From positions 1 to 46,082 of the forward strand of contig DASSJE010000504.1 of assembly GCA_035691365.1 (NCBI GenBank): 46,082 nucleotides of DNA. Reading direction: 5' to 3'. This stretch comes from Terriglobia bacterium. GTDB lineage: Bacteria > Acidobacteriota > Terriglobia > UBA7540. The notes under the pieces are model-generated. The model worked only from the letters and a program-made list of their open reading frames with translations, had not been told where the DNA came from and did no database searches. Positions 2,172 through 23,243 of this stretch are shown in pieces (positions within the stretch are counted from its first letter, which is position 1; each line of letters begins with the position of its first letter). A program made the translations under genes and the position numbers.

Positions 2172-3647
2172 TCAGCGTCCTGGCGGAGGCTGGAATTCCA
2201 GGCCGAAGGGTTCCTGCAAACCTTTTTGGACCGCGCTCATGGCTTCCGGGTACCGGCCGGCGGTGAGAGACGCGGCGCGATACTGAGCGAGGGCCTTGTT
2301 GCGGCTGCCGTTGACGTCATCCAGGCGGCCGAGGTAGATGTGAGACCAGGTCACAATGCGCAGGTCATTGGCGACGCTCAAGGTTTCTTCAAAGTATTTC
2401 CGGGCGATATCCGGCTTGCCGGTGCTGCTGGCCACCACAGCCAGGCCAAACAGGGCGCGCTCGCTTTTCGGGTCGCTGCCGAGGACCTGCTGGAACGTTG
2501 CCTTCGCCGCATCGTAGTTCCCGGAATAGATGTCGTTGTCGCCGGCATCGAGTTGCCGCTCTTTTGCCGTGAGGTCGGAAGCCGCCGAAGTCGCGGCCGG
2601 TTTCGGGGGCTCTGTAAATTTCACCTTGCCGAGGCGCAGCGCCTCCTCGGCCGGATTGATGCCCTTGATCATCTGCTCGTAGTAGCTGAGCATCGAGGCG
2701 TCCTGCTTTTCAAACTGCTGCAGGGCGTCATAAAAATAAGGCGCCAGGATAAACCCTGCGGAGGTCATCTGCTGGATCTGCCTGGCCGCATCCGGCGCAG
2801 GCACGTTATCCATCTGCAATTCAACCGCACCAATGAGGCATTCGGTCACCAGCAGCGAGAAGTCCGCCTTGTAGTCGCTTCGCAGCGCCGGCGCTTTCCT
2901 TGCCAGCGCCTCGAGCGCAGAGGCCTGGTGGATGTCCGGGCCGTATTTCACCGCCAGAGGGTCCAGCAGGAAGTGGAGATACTGGTGGCGGATGTCGTGG
3001 ATGCGGAGCTTGTCCGACGGCGTGATCACCAGGTAATAGTTCGGGCCGTAGATGCGGGCCTGGACCTGGTTCGGCGCGCCCAGAAGGTTCAGATAAATCG
3101 TGTAGGTCCGGCCGAGGTAGGAACCGGCGGGAAAACGAAGATAGGCATCGGTCAGCTCGATGCTCCGGCGCACCGGAGAGCTGTAGCGTTCGATGTCGGT
3201 GTTGAAATCAATCTTGGCGCGGGCCCAAAGGTCGATCATGTCCGCCTGGTTGTAAAACAGCTTGAGCAGGGGAACCAGGCCGGCAACGTTCTTGGCGTCG
3301 GGCGGAAGGTCAGCCTGGGCCACCGTGAACTTGAAATCGGGGGGAGGTCCCAGCAGCAGGGCAAGGGAGATGTATTGCCCCAGGTTCCGCCCCGGGTCAC
3401 TGACGCGGTGGCCCTCATAGAACTTCCGGATGTCGGAAATGACGGGAATGTTCTTGCCCGCCAGGTCCGCGCGGACAGTTTCGCGGGCGTTGCCGGCGGG
3501 GCCCGTTCCCAGGCCCGCGTTGTAACCTGCCTCGTTGAGCGCCGCAAGCACGCAAAAAAGCTGCTCGCTCGGTTGAATCAGGACCTTTCCCTGTTGCGCC
3601 CCGGAAGACAAGGGCAGCAACAGCACGATGAGCAGGAGAATCGCCAT
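2172..3647 (-). CDS. Secreted hypothetical protein with C-terminal TPR-like repeats
   Basis: The internal ATG at 3647 gives MAILLLIVLLLPLSSGAQQ, a signal peptide. The C-terminal third has TPR-like helices (NYDAAKATFQQVL..., ALFGLAVV..., ARKYFEETL). It lies co-directional and downstream of the sigma/anti-sigma pair. The start is chosen over the upstream ATG at 3740. Confidence 0.7.
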   Translation of the reverse strand: MAILLLIVLLLPLSSGAQQGKVLIQPSEQLFCVLAALNEAGYNAGLGTGPAGNARETVRADLAGKNIPVISDIRKFYEGHRVSDPGRNLGQYISLALLLGPPPDFKFTVAQADLPPDAKNVAGLVPLLKLFYNQADMIDLWARAKIDFNTDIERYSSPVRRSIELTDAYLRFPAGSYLGRTYTIYLNLLGAPNQVQARIYGPNYYLVITPSDKLRIHDIRHQYLHFLLDPLAVKYGPDIHQASALEALARKAPALRSDYKADFSLLVTECLIGAVELQMDNVPAPDAARQIQQMTSAGFILAPYFYDALQQFEKQDASMLSYYEQMIKGINPAEEALRLGKVKFTEPPKPAATSAASDLTAKERQLDAGDNDIYSGNYDAAKATFQQVLGSDPKSERALFGLAVVASSTGKPDIARKYFEETLSVANDLRIVTWSHIYLGRLDDVNGSRNKALAQYRAASLTAGRYPEAMSAVQKGLQEPFGLEFQPPPGR

Positions 3648-3745
3648 GCTGCGGCAGGCACGAGGAAGTGGATTTTTCTGCCTGAGAGTTCCTGGACTTT
3701 GCAGGAGGTAGAGGAAAGGATTCCAGCGTCTTAAATGCAAGCAGC

Positions 3746-4399
3746 CTAACCTCGGACCGTAATTGTTCGGGCCGGGAGTGAAAGGATCACCTGGCCGCTG
3801 GTAGGCCGCCCGAAGGAGGTGGCGGGTTCAAACAGAGTGTAATACATCATCTGGTCAAGGCGCTGAATCAGCCCTGGAGACTCCTGCCCGGAAATGATCT
3901 CCCACGACGTGACCCTGCCCTCCGCGTTGACGTTGGTCATCAGAAGCACCGGCTGCGCTCCGACGTCAAATTTCATCGGGGCCATCTCCTGAATACGTGG
4001 CGGCGTGATCAGTGGGACATCAGGGATATTGCTGGTCTGGGGTGCTCCCGTCCCCAGCATCACGACAATGCAGATCAGCGCGACCAGGGCGCCGGCAACG
4101 GAGGGGAACCAGACCGGCCGGAACACATTTTCCAGGCGGACGATAAGCCGCTGGAGAAGGTCGCGGTGCAACTCCTGGGACATCTGCACCCGCAAACGCA
4201 ATGCAAGTTCCGGCGACACGCGCTGCCGCAGCAACCGGTGGAGCTCGGAATGAAGGCTTTCGTACCGGTCCAGTTCTGCGGCACAGGGAGCGCAATGCGC
4301 CAGATGATAACGGACCGAGTGGATGGTTTCGACCGGGCAAACGCCGTCCATGTAGTCCGAAAAGTGGCCGCGAATTTCCGTGCAAGTTTCGAAGATCAT
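3746..4399 (-). CDS. Anti-sigma factor, zinc-finger (ZAS, HxxxCxxC) type, single-pass membrane protein
   Basis: N-terminal YHLAHCAPC matches H-x3-C-x2-C. There is a central hydrophobic helix (WFPSVAGALVALICIVVMLG). A 4-nt ATGA overlap links it to the upstream ECF sigma gene. Confidence 0.8.
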   Translation of the reverse strand: MIFETCTEIRGHFSDYMDGVCPVETIHSVRYHLAHCAPCAAELDRYESLHSELHRLLRQRVSPELALRLRVQMSQELHRDLLQRLIVRLENVFRPVWFPSVAGALVALICIVVMLGTGAPQTSNIPDVPLITPPRIQEMAPMKFDVGAQPVLLMTNVNAEGRVTSWEIISGQESPGLIQRLDQMMYYTLFEPATSFGRPTSGQVILSLPARTITVRG

Positions 4400-5031
4400 A
4401 ATGCCCCGCTCAATCGGGGGGCTAGTTTGCGCTTCAGCGTCTCGCGCCCTCGCCGCAAACGGGACTTGACAGTCCCTTCGGCTATCCCCAGCACCTCGGC
4501 AATTTCTTCGTAAGCGAGCCCTTCAATTTCTCTCAGCACCACGACTGTGCGGTAAGGTTCAGCGAGGGCCGCGAGAGCACGTTTGACCTCAGCCTGGCAC
4601 TCTGCCTGTTCGTATACGCTGAAGGGTGTCTCGCGCCCGCTCCGATAAATCGACGCCTGCACGTTTAAATGCAGGGTCTCGTCATCGGTCGAATAAGCCT
4701 CGTGGAAAAGACGGCGACGCCAGCTCCGGCGATGGTTGGACGCCTCATGAACGGCAATGCGGTAAATCCAGGTTTTCAGGCTGCTGTGGCCATTGAACTG
4801 CCGGATGCCGCGCAGAATCTTGAGCAGCACGTTCTGGAGAACATCGGAAGCCTCACCCTGCTCAGCCACCATGTGGGAAATCAGGTTAAACAGCGGGTTT
4901 TGATAGACGGCCAGAAGATAGGCAAACGCCTCCTCCGAACCCGCCTTCAACTCCGCCACCAATGCGGCTTCGTCGCTGACTACGGGAGCCGTTTGATCGA
5001 GAGCGACACCTATTGATCGTATCGTGTCCAC
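4396..5031 (-). CDS. ECF-family RNA polymerase sigma factor (sigma-70 regions 2 and 4)
   Basis: Region 2 is FAYLLAVYQNPLFNLISHMV...LKTWIYRIAVHEASNHRR. Region 4.2 is REIEGLAYEEIAEVLGIAEGTVKSRLRRGRETL. I place the start at the GTG at 5031, preceded by GGGGG. The ORF-track start at 5229 would overlap the glutaredoxin-like gene and add about 65 atypical residues. Confidence 0.85.
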   Translation of the reverse strand: MDTIRSIGVALDQTAPVVSDEAALVAELKAGSEEAFAYLLAVYQNPLFNLISHMVAEQGEASDVLQNVLLKILRGIRQFNGHSSLKTWIYRIAVHEASNHRRSWRRRLFHEAYSTDDETLHLNVQASIYRSGRETPFSVYEQAECQAEVKRALAALAEPYRTVVVLREIEGLAYEEIAEVLGIAEGTVKSRLRRGRETLKRKLAPRLSGAL

Positions 5032-6069: not shown

Positions 6070-8441
<2,372 letters not shown>

Positions 8442-8459
8442 TTTTCTCCCGCCTCACAC

Positions 8460-9992
8460 TTACACTTTTGCGGCTTCGCGCTTTGCCTGGAACTGCTGCT
8501 TGTATTTCTCAAGCATGCTCTTGATTTCGGAGCGCAGTTGATCATCAAGCTGCTTCTTCTCGATAATCTTCCTTCCAATTTCCGGGGAAGACGAATCCAT
8601 GAACTCGTAGAGCCCGTTTTCAAAAGGGCGGCACTCTTCAACTTCCAGATCGTCAAGAAAACCCATGGTGCCGGCGAGTATTGTCACAATCTGTTTCTCT
8701 ACCGGCAAGGGCTTGTACTGGTCCTGCTTCAGAACTTCCGTCAGACGCTGACCGCGCCGCAACTGCGCCTGCGAGGCCCGGTCCAGGTCACTCGCGAATT
8801 GCGCGAAAGCCGCCAGGGCGCGATATTGGGCAAGGTCCAGGCGCAACGTCCCGGCCACCTGCTTCATCGCCTTGATCTGGGCGTTGCCACCTACACGCGA
8901 AACAGAAAGCCCCACGTTAATGGCGGGACGGATGCCGCTGTTGAACAGGTCCGTCTCAAGGTAGATCTGGCCATCAGTGATGGAGATAACATTGGTTGGA
9001 ATGTAGGCGGAGATATCACCCGCCTGCGTTTCGATGATCGGGAGGGCCGTCAGAGAACCCGCGCCCAGTTTCTGATTCAGCTTTGCGGCCCGCTCCAGAA
9101 GCCGGGAATGCAGGTAAAAAACATCGCCGGGGTACGCCTCGCGCCCCGGCGGACGCCTCAACAGCAGGGAGATTTCACGGTAAGCGACGGCATGCTTTGA
9201 AAGATCGTCGTAAATCAGGAGCGCGTGCCCACCCTTGTCACGGAAATACTCGCCGATCGCGCACCCTGCGTACGGCGCTAGGTATTGCAGCGGGGCAGGG
9301 TCCGTGGAACTGGCCTCGACGACAATGGAATACTCCATGGCGCCGTTTTGATCGAGTGTCTTGATCACCTGGGCGACCGTTGAGCGCTTCTGCCCGATTG
9401 CAACGTAGATGCAGATAACATCGCCGCCACGCTGGTTGAGGATGGTGTCAATCGCAACCGCCGTCTTGCCAGTCTGGCGGTCGCCAATAATCAATTCGCG
9501 CTGGCCGCGGCCGATTGGAATCATCGTATCGATGCCCTTCAGGCCCGTTTGCAGCGGCTCGCGAACAGGCTGCCGGTCAACTACGCCGGGGGCAATCGTC
9601 TCAAGAGGGTTAAACGCCTTCGTAGCAATGGGGCCCTTGCCGTCAGTAGGCCGCCCCAGAGGGTTCACAACGCGGCCCACCAGTGCCTCGCCCACCGGGA
9701 CCGATATGATGCGCCCGGTCCGCTTGACCACGTCTCCTTCTTCAATTTTGGTGTAATCCCCCAGCAGCACCGCGCTGACCTGATCTTCTTCCAGGTTGAG
9801 GGCAAGGCCCGACACGCCGTGGGGAAGTTCCAGCAGCTCGGTCGCCATCACGTTCTCGAGCCCGTGAATGCGCGCCACTCCGTCGCCCACGGACATCACC
9901 GTACCGACCTCGCTTACGCTGACCGTACGGTCAAAATTTTCGATCTGCTCCCGGATAATTCCGGTAATTTCATCTGGTCTGATTTTTGCCAT
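8460..9992 (-). CDS. atpA: F1 ATP synthase alpha subunit
   Basis: Contains GDRQTGKT (Walker A), the alpha-type N-terminus [17 protein letters not shown], and [14 protein letters not shown]. Confidence 0.97.
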
Positions 9993-10120
9993 ATTTATAT
10001 GCTTTCGCGCGCTTCAAAATTTGCCGGTCCCTCCGCTGCGAATCTGGCAGCGCCTGCGGCCAGTCCACTCAAATTTTAAGTTCTATCCTGAAGCAGGCCA
10101 CGGAAGATGTGTGCCGTGCC

Positions 10121-10167
10121 AAAACTGAAGGAGAAGAAAAGTCTTCTTCAGGAGGTGGTTCTCCTTC
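10121..10167 (-). terminator. Hairpin plus short U tract inside the atpH-atpA spacer (possible attenuator, partial terminator or processing site)
   Basis: Minus-strand RNA is GAAGGAGAA-N23-UUCUCCUUC-AG-UUUU (arms 10159-10167 and 10127-10135). An alternative CUGAAG/CUUCAG stem ends directly at the UUUU. Confidence 0.3.
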
Positions 10168-10228
10168 CAACGCCGTGCGCCACTCCGCCGTGAGCTTTGA
10201 AATCGCCAAAAACTTTTTCTTGGTCCGG

Positions 10229-10768
10229 TTATGCAGATGTCAACCGCCCCCGAAGACGCTCCAGGTACCCCTGGGCGGAGCCATCATAAATCGTGCTGCC
10301 AACCCGGGCCTGGATTCCGCCCAGCAATTTCTCCTCACGACGGAATTTCATTTCCACTTTTTTGCCTGTCAACTCTGCGAACTTCCTCCGAAGCGTCTCC
10401 TGCTCATCTGGGGTCAGGTCCTGCGCATATGAAACCTGGACTTCAATAATTCCCAGCCGCTCGTTAGCGGCCTTCTGAAAGGCCTCCAGGACTTCTTCCA
10501 GCAGGGAGATCCGGTAGTTCACCAGCAGGACCCGAAGAAAGTTTCCCGCTGTAACTGAAACCTCCAGCTTTTGGATGACGGCGTCCAGCACGGCGCGTTT
10601 CTGCTCGACCGGAATCGTCGGGCTGGTCAAAACCTGCCGCAGGTCATCGCTCTCCCGCCAGACACCGGCAAAATCTTCCAGTTCCCGCTGCATGGCGCCA
10701 ACGTCGCCCTGCGCGCCCAGCACTTCCGCAAGCGCTCGCGCATAACGACTGGCAATGGCCATTGACAT
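10229..10768 (-). CDS. atpH: F1 ATP synthase delta (OSCP) subunit
   Basis: 179 aa starting IASRYARALAEV, OSCP-like helical pattern, and its position between the b and alpha genes. Confidence 0.85.
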   Translation of the reverse strand: MSMAIASRYARALAEVLGAQGDVGAMQRELEDFAGVWRESDDLRQVLTSPTIPVEQKRAVLDAVIQKLEVSVTAGNFLRVLLVNYRISLLEEVLEAFQKAANERLGIIEVQVSYAQDLTPDEQETLRRKFAELTGKKVEMKFRREEKLLGGIQARVGSTIYDGSAQGYLERLRGRLTSA

Positions 10769-19394: not shown

Positions 19395-20423
19395 TCATTG
19401 GGGTTGGGGATTCGCCAGCCGGTCAACCAGGCTATTCACATCATCCTGGCAAGCAGGGCCGTCAAACCCTTGTTGCTTCATTTGAGGAAGGAACCGGGCG
19501 AGGTTCTGCCCGAAGAAGGCCTTGCCGCGATCGGGTTGGCCCAGCACGGCATACTGTGCGGCAAGCGTCTGCAGTAGACTGAGCGAGGGGTCCTTTTCGC
19601 GGGACCACCTGGCCAGGTTCTCTCGAAGGGCTCCTTGCAGGAAATCGCTGAATTTCCCGGTCTCGTCCACATACTGGCCACCGGAAAAGGAATAAATGGA
19701 AATAACGTCAGCAGCGTCCTCCCTCGGCCCGCATGCCGTCACCTGGGGCCGGTGCACTACAAGCACCCGGATAGAGCCGCGGCCAATCCTTCGAATTTCC
19801 AGGCCTTCGAAAGGCCATCCCTGAAGCCCGTCGATATGGCCAATAACCTTCAGAGAATTCTTTTCGACCTCCACAACGTTCACAGTAGTGCAGCAACGGT
19901 TGCCGCCTGAATAAAGTCCAACCGCCAGGTCGGGCTTATGGTCGCCGGAGAGGTCGCGAAGATAGACTGGCCGTGGCCTGCCATTCTGGGCCGGCAATCC
20001 TCGCCGGCCGGCAAAATCATAAAGAGCAGTCCATGCTTCCCGCGCGCCCTCCAGCGTATCCACCTGGTAAGCAATCTGGTTTTCGTCGTTGTAGATGACC
20101 AGACGCCCCGGAGCAAAACCCAGGCTGACGGAATTGGATCGATAGAGAGCTGCGCGGTACTGCCGGTCAAGAGTGAAAGTGTTGATTCGTTCGAAACCTG
20201 GAATATCCGGGTACGCTCCGTGAGACCCTCCTGTCCCCAGCACGTACTGCTCTGCGGAGCTTGCCGCATCCTTCAGGCTGGAGGGCTTCCAGTCACGCTG
20301 AAGCCCCAGAACAAAAAAGAACACAAGGATCGCCAGCAGAGTCGAAATGATGAATTCACCCTTGCGCATCAGAGGGAGAATCTCCGGAAAGTTTCTGGCT
20401 CGCTCTGAAGCCTCATAACTCAC
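19395..20423 (-). CDS. Membrane-anchored hypothetical protein (one N-terminal TM helix, FG-GAP/VCBS-like DLSGDHKPDLAVG motif)
   Basis: A 342-aa ORF with sensible composition and the TM helix IISTLLAILVFFFVLGL. I recognise no family. Confidence 0.6.
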   Translation of the reverse strand: MSYEASERARNFPEILPLMRKGEFIISTLLAILVFFFVLGLQRDWKPSSLKDAASSAEQYVLGTGGSHGAYPDIPGFERINTFTLDRQYRAALYRSNSVSLGFAPGRLVIYNDENQIAYQVDTLEGAREAWTALYDFAGRRGLPAQNGRPRPVYLRDLSGDHKPDLAVGLYSGGNRCCTTVNVVEVEKNSLKVIGHIDGLQGWPFEGLEIRRIGRGSIRVLVVHRPQVTACGPREDAADVISIYSFSGGQYVDETGKFSDFLQGALRENLARWSREKDPSLSLLQTLAAQYAVLGQPDRGKAFFGQNLARFLPQMKQQGFDGPACQDDVNSLVDRLANPQPQ

Positions 20424-20472: not shown

Positions 20473-20709
20473 TTATCGGGCGGTGTGGCGGAATGAATCC
20501 AGGCGCCATTCATCTTCCTTTTCGCTATGGCGAAGAATATAAGTGTTTCCGTCATCGGCCAGCACTTTGAAACAACGGTAATCTATGCCATACCACTGGT
20601 CGAGGACCTCCACCACCTCAAAAGTCCGCGAATCCCTTTCGCCGGGGCGGAACCGCAGGGGCCGTTCGTCCGCCTTGTAGCCTGCATAACATTCAACCTG
20701 AAGAGTCAT
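20473..20709 (-). CDS. Small (78 aa) hypothetical protein, last gene of the kinase/DUF3037 cassette
   Basis: The ATG at 20709 is preceded by GGGGG and lies 13 nt after the DUF3037 stop. The sequence MTLQVECYAGYKADERPLRF...VVEVLDQWYGIDYRCFKVLADDGNTYILRHSEKEDEWRL is beta-rich and resembles conserved small hypotheticals that I cannot name. Confidence 0.55.
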   Translation of the reverse strand: MTLQVECYAGYKADERPLRFRPGERDSRTFEVVEVLDQWYGIDYRCFKVLADDGNTYILRHSEKEDEWRLDSFRHTAR

Positions 20710-20722
20710 CGCGCCCCCGGCT

Positions 20723-21544
20723 TTAGATGCCCAGTTCGCTGCATATCGACCGGGCGTACTGGTCGGCAAGAGCAATCGGCTGGATAGAAATTCCGGCTTC
20801 CACCAAAATGCTTTGTGAAAGCGTGGCCGCTTCGTCCTCCTTACTTGCCTCCCCCTCGACTACGGCCGTCAACTCGGCCGGCCCATGGCGGCGGACGCGG
20901 TCCATGGTATAAACCAGAACCTTTGCCAGCTCAACGTCGCGCTTGAGCGATAGTGAGTGGATAAACTTCATGTGGCCGTTCGGCCTGCCCGCAATCTCAC
21001 GCGGGCGGTACCCAAAATCAAAGGTCAAGGTGTCGTTGGGTTGCGTCCAGCGCGCGGCCGGAATATTCCGTTCAAGCTGCGGCTGGTCCCACAGCCCGGC
21101 TCTCACAAAAGATAACCGCAGCCGCTGTTTGATCCGCATTCGCGTGTCGACCGGGAGCGGTCCATCCACCCGGGCCCCCACGTACCGGTTGAAAACATCC
21201 TGTATTTCAGCGGCAGGGTCACGAAGCAGGCATGCCCTGACTGGAGCAATCTGCACCAGGTTTGAAAAGGATCGCCCCATCCAGCTCAGATAGTTTTCCA
21301 ATTCGTCACTGTGTTCGTCAATCTGCTGCTCGAAGTCCTGCTGAAGCTCGCGCAGGAATTCGAGATCAGCCTGGGGATGGAACCGCTTGATGCGGCGAAA
21401 GTCATCTGTAAACAGGCAGCCCAGATAGTTCTCCTGGGGACTGAACAAGAACACTCCGATGTTGACGAACTCACCCCGCACAACGTCCGGCACATATTGC
21501 ACGACATAGAGCGAGCACGCCTTGTATTGTTCAGCATCAGCCAT
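20723..21544 (-). CDS. DUF3037-family protein (function unknown)
   Basis: The N-terminus CSLYVVQYVPDVVRGEFVNIGVFLFSPQENYLGCLFTDDFRRIKRF matches the DUF3037 hallmark as I remember it. The start has an AGGTGA SD. The gene lies 34 nt downstream of the kinase gene. Confidence 0.75.
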   Translation of the reverse strand: MADAEQYKACSLYVVQYVPDVVRGEFVNIGVFLFSPQENYLGCLFTDDFRRIKRFHPQADLEFLRELQQDFEQQIDEHSDELENYLSWMGRSFSNLVQIAPVRACLLRDPAAEIQDVFNRYVGARVDGPLPVDTRMRIKQRLRLSFVRAGLWDQPQLERNIPAARWTQPNDTLTFDFGYRPREIAGRPNGHMKFIHSLSLKRDVELAKVLVYTMDRVRRHGPAELTAVVEGEASKEDEAATLSQSILVEAGISIQPIALADQYARSICSELGI

Positions 21545-21578
21545 ACCATCACCTGGACCTGCAGGCCACTATCACGAT

Positions 21579-22601
21579 CTAGTCCCAATTCGGAAAAGGT
21601 CGCAATGAACTCCCTTTTGCTTCGATAATCAATTGCCGCAACCGCCGGCGCCGCTTATAAAGTTCTTCCGTAAGGCGCGAAATCTGGTCAGGATCTTCCC
21701 CGCACCACTCTCGCGGCACTTCGCGAAGGCATTCTTCCAGCTCGGATGCCGCGATGTTTTCGATTCGGGAAAGGTAGGGTTCAAACGATTTCAACCCACG
21801 CACGCTCTCATACACCAGCCGGCGCGGATATAGGCTCCGAATAGGGCTGTCCGGGAAGTTCCATTCCCCATCGTTAAAGCAGAAACCGTGGTCAATGAGC
21901 GTGGCGGAGTACCGGTTGCCGCTCTGGTCGATGGTCCGGTAAAAAATCGCCTGGCGGCCGTCACAGTTGCAGGTCCACTTGTCCAGCACGAATGCCCCCA
22001 GAAAAATCGGGGCCAGATTGGAGACTTGCCGCAGCAGGCGGTCAGGAAGAAAATCCACCACCAGAGTCCGGCTGGGAGCGCCCGGAAATCTGGAACCGAA
22101 ATGTAACCCGGAAGCGCACTGCACCTCCTGCCCCACCGTCTCGAACTTCAACAAAGGAGTTCCGGCAATGAGACTCTGCGAAACCTGCACGAACGCCCGC
22201 CCGGGAACAGGCAGCCGAATGAGCGCGGCAAGGCGGCTGGCAAGCATCTCGTTGGCCAGAATTCTGACGTGCTGGGGATTATTCCTGAACTTGACAACGT
22301 AGGTTTCGCCGTCGTCACAGCCCATCAGGAAAGGTTGCGAGCCGCCCCGCATCCTGCGGATGCATTCAACCGCCACAACCTTTCTGACCGCTGTGAGTTC
22401 GCTCTGGTCTTGTTGCAAGATCCTCGACGAGGCAGACGCGCTGCCATCTGGTCTGACTCCAGAACCGAAATTGCCAGGCCCTTCATGCATCCCTGGTAAA
22501 TATCGCCCAAGCCCCTTCTTCAGCGTCACAAAGGGCCCGGTTGCGCTTATCGGTTTCGCCGGAACTGCCCCCCGTTCTGGCAGCCTGGCCGCGCGCCTCA
22601 C
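21579..22601 (-). CDS. HipA-family-like (PI3/4-kinase fold) protein kinase; start codon uncertain
   Basis: Motifs present: ETYVVKFRNNPQ (beta3 lysine), NEMLASRLA, FVLDKWTCNCDGRQAIF (catalytic loop D..N.D) and TLIDHGFCFN (metal-binding DxG). The first ~70 residues are R/G/P/S-rich. Alternative starts exist at 22490 (ATG) or further in. Confidence 0.7.
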   Translation of the reverse strand: MRRAARLPERGAVPAKPISATGPFVTLKKGLGRYLPGMHEGPGNFGSGVRPDGSASASSRILQQDQSELTAVRKVVAVECIRRMRGGSQPFLMGCDDGETYVVKFRNNPQHVRILANEMLASRLAALIRLPVPGRAFVQVSQSLIAGTPLLKFETVGQEVQCASGLHFGSRFPGAPSRTLVVDFLPDRLLRQVSNLAPIFLGAFVLDKWTCNCDGRQAIFYRTIDQSGNRYSATLIDHGFCFNDGEWNFPDSPIRSLYPRRLVYESVRGLKSFEPYLSRIENIAASELEECLREVPREWCGEDPDQISRLTEELYKRRRRLRQLIIEAKGSSLRPFPNWD

Positions 22602-22682: not shown

Positions 22683-23243
22683 TTAGCGGCGGCGCTTTGT
22701 CTTCTTTCCGGCAGCGGCCCTCTTGCCTTTCCCACCCTTCGGAGCCTTTTTAACCTTTGCGGCTTTCTTCGCGGCCTTCACCGGCCTTTTTGGCTTGGCA
22801 GCCTTCTTCGGCTTGGAGGGCTTCCCGGCCTTCTTTGCCTTAGCGGCCCCTTTTTTCAACTTGGCAGGCTTCCGGGCTTTCCCGGCTTTGGCCAATTTGG
22901 CAGGTTCCTTCGGCTTGGGGGATTTTTCAGTCTTTGCAGGCTTGCTGGCTTTGATGGGCCTGGCAGGCTTCTCTGGTTTTCCCTTCACCGCCGGTACCTT
23001 GGGCTCGGCTGGCTGGGGAGTGCTGACGGGGGCAGGCGGAGGAGGCACTGAAGGCGGCGGACCTTCCAGCTCTGCAGGCCCGACATCTTCCTGCTCGGAT
23101 TCATAAGAAATCTCCTCATCCAGATCTTCGAGATCCACCCCGAAGCCTTCCTCATCCAATTTCTCTTCGTAGTCAGAAGAGAATTGGTCATCAAATTCGT
23201 CAAACTCTTCGCCGGGCTCATGGTTTTCATCATTGAACCGCAT
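22683..23243 (-). CDS. Bipartite acidic / lysine-alanine-proline-rich histone H1-like (AlgP/Hc1-like) protein
   Basis: The ATG at 23243 has GGAGGA 5 nt upstream. Residues 1-60 are D/E-rich and the last ~100 are KPAK/KKAAK repeats ending KKTKRRR. The plus-strand ORFs here are low-complexity mirror images. Confidence 0.7.
   Translation of the reverse strand: MRFNDENHEPGEEFDEFDDQFSSDYEEKLDEEGFGVDLEDLDEEISYESEQEDVGPAELEGPPPSVPPPPAPVSTPQPAEPKVPAVKGKPEKPARPIKASKPAKTEKSPKPKEPAKLAKAGKARKPAKLKKGAAKAKKAGKPSKPKKAAKPKRPVKAAKKAAKVKKAPKGGKGKRAAAGKKTKRRR

Follow-up and report, generated by a model that had tools for sequence, protein, structure and literature searches.

Three adjacent genes on a 46,082-nucleotide (nt) stretch of DNA from a soil bacterium of the Terriglobia (assembly GCA_035691365.1, contig DASSJE010000504.1, positions 1 to 46,082; hereafter, the window) raise the question of whether they form a new toxin-antitoxin or defense module, and which of them belong to it. 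A preliminary description of the window had seen here genes for a HipA-like kinase, a protein of the DUF3037 family, and a 78-amino-acid (aa) protein, and had suggested an uncharacterized kinase-based module, possibly including the small protein. Our analysis suggests that the unit is probably a two-gene toxin-antitoxin module of the HipAD/DS-6/PDC-M66 type, formed by the kinase and the DUF3037 protein. The kinase/DUF3037 pairing has already been catalogued and experimentally validated in homologs; the Terriglobia locus is not a new system, and it is arguably a variant of this type. The genes and domains of the cassette, including the open reading frames (ORFs) as first called, are as follows.

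22601..21579, minus strand: ORF1 as called in the preliminary description, 340 aa from a GTG start
21579..22490, minus strand: Ser/Thr kinase of the HipA_2 family and predicted toxin; 303 aa, most likely starting with the ATG at 22490
21544..20723, minus strand: ORF2, 273 aa
21176..21544, minus strand: N-terminal DUF3037 domain of ORF2, approximately residues 1-123
20723..21175, minus strand: C-terminal domain of ORF2, residues 124-273 and the stop codon
20473..20709, minus strand: ORF3, predicted all-beta protein, 78 aa, 13 nt downstream of ORF2

A HipA-like kinase paired with a DUF3037 protein

The layout reported earlier is correct: the three ORFs are co-directional on the minus strand, with gaps of 34 nt between ORF1 and ORF2 and 13 nt between ORF2 and ORF3. 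The identification of ORF1 as a HipA-like kinase is also supported, as its product matches the Pfam family HipA_2 (PF20613) with E 3.3e-15 and a score of 56.5 bits, the cut-off being 27 bits, while the match to HipA_C (PF07804) covers 46 residues and stays under the 30.5-bit cut-off (E 0.022, 14.8 bits). The kinase also matches the PADLOC model PDC-M66A (E 7.7e-12) and PHROG 3162 (E 8e-19). ORF2 contains the motif YVVQYVPDVVRGEFVNIGVFLF, quoted previously as the hallmark of DUF3037, and its residues 14-122 match PF11236 with E 5.6e-24; the match to the PADLOC model PDC-M66B (E 4.2e-17) is limited to residues 13-99. A search of all three proteins against NCBIfam produced no matching model, and sequence searches matched no solved structure for the kinase or ORF2.

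To place the pair in a wider context, we scanned species-representative genomes, which yielded 32 loci, all from Terriglobia/Acidobacteriota metagenome-assembled genomes; three contigs from protein look-ups brought the total to 35. The kinase gene stands directly before the DUF3037 gene in all 34 Terriglobia loci having upstream DNA, which agrees with the proposal that the two form a module. The earlier statement that such genes often sit side by side in unrelated phyla is in line with adjacent kinase and DUF3037 genes on plasmids of Streptomyces and Chondrinema and in one coliphage.

The preliminary description knew of no experimental work on this gene pair, but its function has in fact been published, a result that the description had named among those that would refute its claim. 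DUF3037 is strongly tied to HipA-like kinases, and the pair is listed in PADLOC as the phage defense candidate PDC-M66 (PMC12548924; PLoS Biol, 2025). In the Retron-Sda1 operon, deletion of the kinase gene led to the loss of defense against phage Bas51 and deletion of the DUF3037 gene was toxic, from which the authors concluded that the pair is a stand-alone toxin-antitoxin-like defense system (PMC12548924). Moreover, the DS-6 system has been validated by DeWeirdt, Mahoney & Laub (PMC13092281; Science, 2026). There, DS-6A is a HipA-like kinase and DS-6B is comprised of DUF3037 and DUF1829; a catalytic mutant of the kinase lost defense, and AlphaFold3 predicts a complex of DS-6A with DS-6B and contacts of DS-6B with DNA. 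According to the same paper, Brenes & Laub (2025) came upon the system independently and gave it the new name HipAD (PMC13092281). Protection of E. coli from phages by the HipAD/DS-6 type has been shown in 2025-2026. The mechanistic guess made earlier, that of a kinase with a DUF3037 partner, was right. Since in homologs deletion of the DUF3037 gene is toxic and deletion of the kinase gene abolishes defense, we predict the kinase to be the toxin.

A tblastn search of phage records identified a relative of the pair in the lambdoid Escherichia phage PhiR5_1 (PV340545.1), where it is annotated as a HipA toxin of 249 aa and a HipD antitoxin of 275 aa. The two genes overlap by 4 nt and lie between cI and kil (positions 3243-4816 of our locus L036). 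The Terriglobia kinase is 32% identical to the phage HipA over 234 aa (E 2e-17), and residues 10-123 of ORF2 are 31% identical to HipD (E 6e-13). The phage proteins match PDC-M66A and PDC-M66B with E-values similar to those of the Terriglobia pair (e.g., 6e-15 for the phage HipA on PDC-M66A).

The kinase

The motifs YVVKF, NEML, DKWTCNCDGRQ, and LIDHGF, in which a catalytic set had been recognized, are all found in ORF1. In the numbering of the 303-aa product, K67 (YVVKF), D170 and N175 (DKWTCN), and D200 (LIDHG) are invariant across 35 orthologs, and these residues are also aligned with the phage HipA. This core of the set therefore stands, while two further residues, the D of CNCDGRQ and the H of LIDHG, vary among the same orthologs. 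The Terriglobia kinases carry two parts that the phage HipA lacks: a variable N-terminus of ~40 residues and, at the C-terminus, a conserved basic helix that ends in PF..NW.

The start of the kinase gene had been placed at the GTG at 22601, but the orthologs favor another one. They are 285-311 aa long, with the mode at 303, and the 37 residues that the GTG start would add (window positions 22491-22601) are not conserved in them. Hence, the most likely start is the ATG at 22490, yielding a gene at 22490..21579 and a product of 303 aa. The stretch just 5' of this ATG (TTGTGAC...GATATTTACCAGGGATG) is conserved in close relatives and does not contain a well-spaced Shine-Dalgarno sequence, so that a short-leader or leaderless kinase transcript is possible. 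Conservation of the region upstream of the kinase is confined to close relatives, and no palindrome was found there.

The DUF3037 protein and its second domain

The AlphaFold2 model of ORF2 contains two domains (predicted local distance difference test, pLDDT, 89.8 for the whole protein; predicted template modeling score 0.86). The N-terminal DUF3037 domain is the part shared with other systems. With shallow profiles, hhalign aligned only this part with the HipD family (probability 97.4%), and BLAST found similarity of ORF2 to HipD in this part and none in the C-terminal half. The DUF3037 proteins of Streptomyces and Chondrinema, which lack a second domain, are 26-30% identical to residues 14-122 of ORF2. 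As DUF3037 is the sole part common to every partner protein, including those of only 127-131 aa, it is predicted to be the kinase-binding, neutralizing part of the antitoxin.

No Pfam family matches the C-terminal half of ORF2; DUF1829 in particular had no HMMER match in either the Terriglobia or the HipD family. For HipD (PhiR5_1), this differs from the published description of DS-6B, which names both DUF3037 and DUF1829. In hhalign, a deeper profile aligned end to end with the HipD family at 99% probability. When the C-terminal slices were aligned alone, the score was 19.4 (P 0.014), compared to 11.4 (P 0.33) for the reversed control. In an exhaustive search, 112 representative clusters carried the ORF2-type C-terminal domain, nearly all of them at positions ~130-270 of 265-300-aa proteins, and the N-terminus was DUF3037 in 45 of the 46 aligned members. 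These clusters document a subfamily of the partner protein whose second domain is not demonstrably related to that of HipD.

The predicted core topology of this domain is alpha-beta-beta-beta-alpha-beta. A Foldseek search with the whole ORF2 model against PDB gave weak matches (E 3e-3 to 0.1), whose top entries were uniformly of the PD-(D/E)xK fold: Can2, Card1, VC1899, BamHI, BstEII, and Mus81/ERCC4. The fold matches in BFVD included endonuclease-like proteins and one DUF1828 protein. The Foldseek output gives no query ranges, and we ascribe the matches to the C-terminal half because of its topology. The domain has four invariant acidic residues, D171, D176, D203, and E230, with D176 on the second strand; no canonical D...(D/E)xK motif was found on the predicted strands, and the third strand does not have a recognizable (D/E)xK. 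Judging from the model, the domain may adopt a restriction-endonuclease-like fold, the fold class to which DUF1829 also belongs. The earlier remark that no nuclease lies nearby is thus correct at the level of Pfam, but has to be qualified by these weak fold matches.

ORF3 occurs independently of the pair

Downstream and upstream of the cassette, the window contains the following features, which help to define the boundaries of the functional unit.

19395..20423, minus strand: 342-aa protein adjoining ORF3, a conserved neighbor
22683..23243, minus strand: acidic/Lys-rich protein upstream of the kinase, 186 aa
13784-19360, plus strand: complete 2-oxoacid dehydrogenase cluster (Lpd, LplA-like, E1-alpha, E1-beta, and E2), converging on the cassette

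ORF3 is a real gene by the pattern of its conservation, belonging to a large uncharacterized family of apparently all-beta proteins. We found 1,307 homologs of ~78-80 aa, whose alignment has 25 invariant columns, including V5, C7, G10, Y11, P17, W39, D53, R60, H61, W68, and F73. The AlphaFold2 model (pLDDT 84.5) has six beta strands, in line with the beta-rich character noted previously, and the G-rich Shine-Dalgarno-like stretch also noted is present. The ORF list contains an alternative call of 100 aa with a TTG start overlapping ORF2; the homologs favor the ATG that gives 78 aa. Searches of Pfam, NCBIfam, PADLOC, and PHROG yielded no match to ORF3, and the best match in the fold search against PDB was no better than E 0.19.

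In the genome loci, ORF3 directly follows the DUF3037 gene in 28 of 35 cases. We then searched metagenome contigs with the ORF3 alignment, which retrieved at least 572 relatives; the best 80 were analyzed, 59 of which had at least 1 kb of upstream sequence. An adjacent upstream DUF3037 gene was present in 24 of these 59 loci and missing in 35, among them L084, with a DUF3037 match ~600 nt away. L082 is a clean empty site, where the SLT/LysM gene, the acidic/Lys-rich gene, and ORF3 are consecutive and both the kinase and DUF3037 genes are missing. In four other loci (L041, L055, L059, and L080), the 342-aa and dehydrogenase E2 genes stay with ORF3, the pair is missing, and different genes lie upstream. 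Distant homologs of ORF3 occur in unrelated, heterogeneous contexts. Conversely, ORF3 is truly missing beside the pair in L018, L022, L028, and L031, all with downstream DNA long enough to show it.

This double dissociation means that the functional unit is comprised of two genes, and the small protein, suggested earlier as a possible part of the module, was rejected as its third component and need not be considered further in this role. From its position, ORF3 is probably co-transcribed with the pair in this genome. Its usual partner in Terriglobia, and the gene with which it usually seems to belong, is the neighboring 342-aa gene.

Conservation and genomic setting of the pair

The window and syntenic contigs with ORF2 identities as low as 65% share one gene order: ABC transporters, the SLT/LysM transglycosylase, the acidic/Lys-rich gene, the kinase, the DUF3037 gene, ORF3, the gene for a protein of ~324 aa, and the opposite-strand dehydrogenase cluster (E2, E1-beta, E1-alpha, LplA, and Lpd). 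LpxB is a further neighbor of the locus. The synteny of the dehydrogenase cluster with ORF3 and the 342-aa gene is held across the clade. In more divergent loci, the neighbors of the pair are dnaX-ybaB-recR and CbiX in L022, and ribBA, an HMGL-like gene, and a gene for a Pkinase-TPR protein in L031.

At the same site or among close relatives, the pair is present in some cases and absent in others (L082, L041, L055, and others), and is therefore dispensable. No alternative defense cargo was seen at the pair-less sites L041 and L082, and for this reason the possibility that the site is a defense hotspot was rejected.

We estimated the ratio of nonsynonymous to synonymous substitution rates (dN/dS), as well as dS itself, by the Nei-Gojobori method, with the dehydrogenase cluster as a housekeeping reference. 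The values were 0.05-0.17 for the kinase and 0.06-0.24 for the DUF3037 protein, compared with 0.10-0.16 for the dehydrogenase E2, 0.06-0.21 for the ABC transporter, and 0.09-0.22 for the SLT/LysM transglycosylase; for ORF3, dN/dS was 0.08-0.42. Since the catalytic residues are invariant in 35 orthologs and dN/dS is 0.05-0.24 for both genes of the pair, the activity of the kinase appears to be maintained. The pair is a two-gene unit with an intact, invariant catalytic set, under purifying selection and vertically inherited.

Proposed mechanism and alternative explanations

By analogy with the homologs, the N-terminal DUF3037 domain of ORF2 would bind the kinase and keep it inactive. The lineage-specific C-terminal alpha/beta domain could bind DNA, providing autoregulation, or sense the trigger. 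Inactivation or titration of the partner, caused by phage infection in the tested homologs, would free the kinase, and the freed kinase would phosphorylate an essential cellular target. Canonical HipA kinases phosphorylate aminoacyl-tRNA synthetases. Phosphorylation of the target would stop growth and abort the infection.

Several observations weigh against reading the pair as a HipAD/DS-6/PDC-M66-type module. At the sequence level, its identity to the validated systems is only ~31-32%; PDC-M66B covers the full length of HipD but only the DUF3037 part of the Terriglobia ORF2, and the homology of the C-terminal halves of ORF2 and HipD is not demonstrable from their sequences. A location in a defense island, for which a survey had been proposed, is not seen, as none of the inspected loci contains defense or mobile-element genes and the neighbors are housekeeping genes throughout. 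GC content is flat over the cassette (0.55-0.58), with no anomaly. The search for operators, promoters, and terminators at the cassette gave counts no higher than in shuffled sequences, and no conserved operator or promoter was found. In IMG/VR viral contigs, scanned by one pattern-based method, there were 114 relatives of the HipD type and none of the Terriglobia type. Finally, dS of the cassette equals that of the flanking genes in each species pair (e.g., 0.44-0.50 vs. 0.42-0.64).

The equality of dS means that the pair has co-diverged with the chromosome; it has done so together with its housekeeping flanks over ~35 Terriglobia lineages, under purifying selection with dN/dS of ~0.1, and this stable chromosomal inheritance is the unusual point of this copy. 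Recent horizontal acquisition was considered and rejected, given the flat GC content and the match of dS to the flanks.

In one alternative explanation, the pair would now be a stable chromosomal switch for growth control, e.g., in dormancy, persistence, or stress, rather than mainly a phage defense system. The kinase would then phosphorylate a host protein, with ORF2 as its physiological control. The synteny in ~35 genome or contig lineages between the SLT/LysM transglycosylase and the dehydrogenase cluster, dS equal to that of the flanks, and housekeeping-like dN/dS are all consistent with such domestication, and so are the housekeeping genes in the other contexts (dnaX-ybaB-recR and ribBA), and the lack of nearby defense genes, of a GC anomaly, and of relatives in viral contigs. 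However, the presence/absence polymorphism shows that the pair is dispensable, and its nearest characterized homologs are defense systems. Chromosomal toxin-antitoxin systems can also be genus-wide, with Legionella HipBST as an example, and acidobacterial phages are, in our estimation, probably under-sampled in IMG/VR. On balance, we consider domestication to be rather unlikely, although it is the main alternative. The same doubt applies to the more specific scenario of a HipAD-type module fixed in the core chromosome of one Terriglobia lineage and catalytically intact over dS >1, in which an abortive-infection system would have turned into a growth or dormancy regulator with a lineage-specific sensor domain in its antitoxin.

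The other alternatives assign different roles to the genes of the cassette. If ORF3 were a third partner, a second regulator or adaptor, the system would resemble the tripartite HipBST, and the start of ORF3 13 nt past ORF2 with its own Shine-Dalgarno-like stretch, its place right behind the DUF3037 gene in most genome loci (28 of 35), and the purifying selection acting on it would all be explained. This is quite improbable in view of the double dissociation: 35 of 59 ORF3 loci have no adjacent DUF3037 gene (the match in L084 being ~600 nt away), ORF3 persists without the pair at the empty site and in the four loci listed above, its distant homologs reside in unrelated contexts, and the pair in turn occurs without ORF3 in four loci. 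Besides, the validated homologs are two-gene systems. Even less plausible is a reversal of the toxin and antitoxin roles, with the C-terminal domain of ORF2 acting as a nuclease under the control of the kinase. The uniformly PD-(D/E)xK, though weak, Foldseek matches, the endonuclease-like proteins among the BFVD matches, and the four invariant acidic residues point in this direction. Still, no fold match goes below E 3e-3, and the predicted strands carry no canonical D...(D/E)xK motif; moreover, many kinase partners consist of DUF3037 only, and deletions in the homologs identify the kinase as the toxin (PMC12548924). A two-gene HipAD/DS-6/PDC-M66-type module with the kinase as the toxin thus remains the probable interpretation.

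Neighboring genes

The 342-aa protein encoded next to ORF3 has no significant Pfam family, with only a weak PliI-like match (E 0.006), and its sequence has an apparent N-terminal hydrophobic segment. In many loci, also where the kinase pair is missing, its gene is conserved as the next one downstream of ORF3. A cell-wall-related role of this protein is conceivable, as the gene adjoins the region of the SLT/LysM lytic transglycosylase.

The 186-aa protein encoded upstream of the kinase is strongly acidic in its N-terminal half, while its C-terminal half is rich in Lys, Ala, and Pro and resembles histone H1. Its gene is conserved next to the SLT/LysM gene, with the kinase on its other side or, at the empty site L082, ORF3. 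In L018 and L031, a protein of similar acidic/basic character is encoded ahead of the pair. The 186-aa protein matched no Pfam family and no helix-turn-helix (HTH) domain. This upholds the earlier observation that the locus has no HipB-like HTH gene, the partner of the kinase being the DUF3037 protein.

In L031, a 965-aa protein with a zinc ribbon, a Hanks-type Ser/Thr kinase domain, and TPR repeats is encoded immediately after the pair (7866-10763, plus strand); this arrangement was seen once.

Comparison with known systems

As the sole domain shared by the partner proteins, DUF3037 points to the kinase-neutralizing element of these systems. The Terriglobia pair is also a clear example, from a little-studied phylum, of such a module behaving as part of the core genome, passed on vertically and kept under purifying selection, and its stable inheritance bears on the question of whether chromosomal toxin-antitoxin or defense modules gain host-regulatory roles.

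Like the HipAD, DS-6, and PDC-M66 systems, the Terriglobia locus encodes a HipA_2 kinase followed, on the same strand, by a protein of ~270 aa with an N-terminal DUF3037 domain. The catalytic motifs are kept, the gene order is kinase to DUF3037, and both proteins match the respective models, PDC-M66A and PDC-M66B. The differences from the HipAD pair of PhiR5_1 concern both the proteins and their setting. The C-terminal half of the Terriglobia partner is not demonstrably homologous, the kinase is ~50 aa longer, and a 34-nt gap takes the place of the 4-nt overlap of the phage genes. The Terriglobia pair is chromosomal, vertically inherited, and surrounded by housekeeping genes, while the phage pair is located at a prophage moron site, with cI and kil on either side.

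The pair of Retron-Sda1 has the same HipA-like/DUF3037 domain pairing, but adjoins a type III retron reverse transcriptase and a non-coding RNA; there is no reverse transcriptase, non-coding RNA, or HTH gene beside the Terriglobia pair. The C-terminus of the Retron-Sda1 DUF3037 protein has been reported to be similar to the DNA-binding protein of the retron (PMC12548924).

The pairs on plasmids of Streptomyces sp. 2P-4 and Chondrinema litorale share the adjacency and order of the kinase and DUF3037 genes with the Terriglobia locus. In these pairs, however, the two genes overlap, and the partners, of 131 and 127 aa, respectively, consist of DUF3037 alone, without a C-terminal domain.

Canonical HipBA of E. 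coli K-12 resembles the Terriglobia pair in combining a HipA-superfamily Ser/Thr kinase, with the D-x-x-x-x-N loop and the metal-binding Asp, with a co-encoded neutralizing partner. By contrast, the Terriglobia kinase has only a below-cut-off match to HipA_C (E 0.022), and at 303 aa is much smaller than E. coli HipA, whose length is ~440 aa. The Terriglobia locus has no HipB-type HTH antitoxin, and its gene order is reversed, with the kinase coming first.

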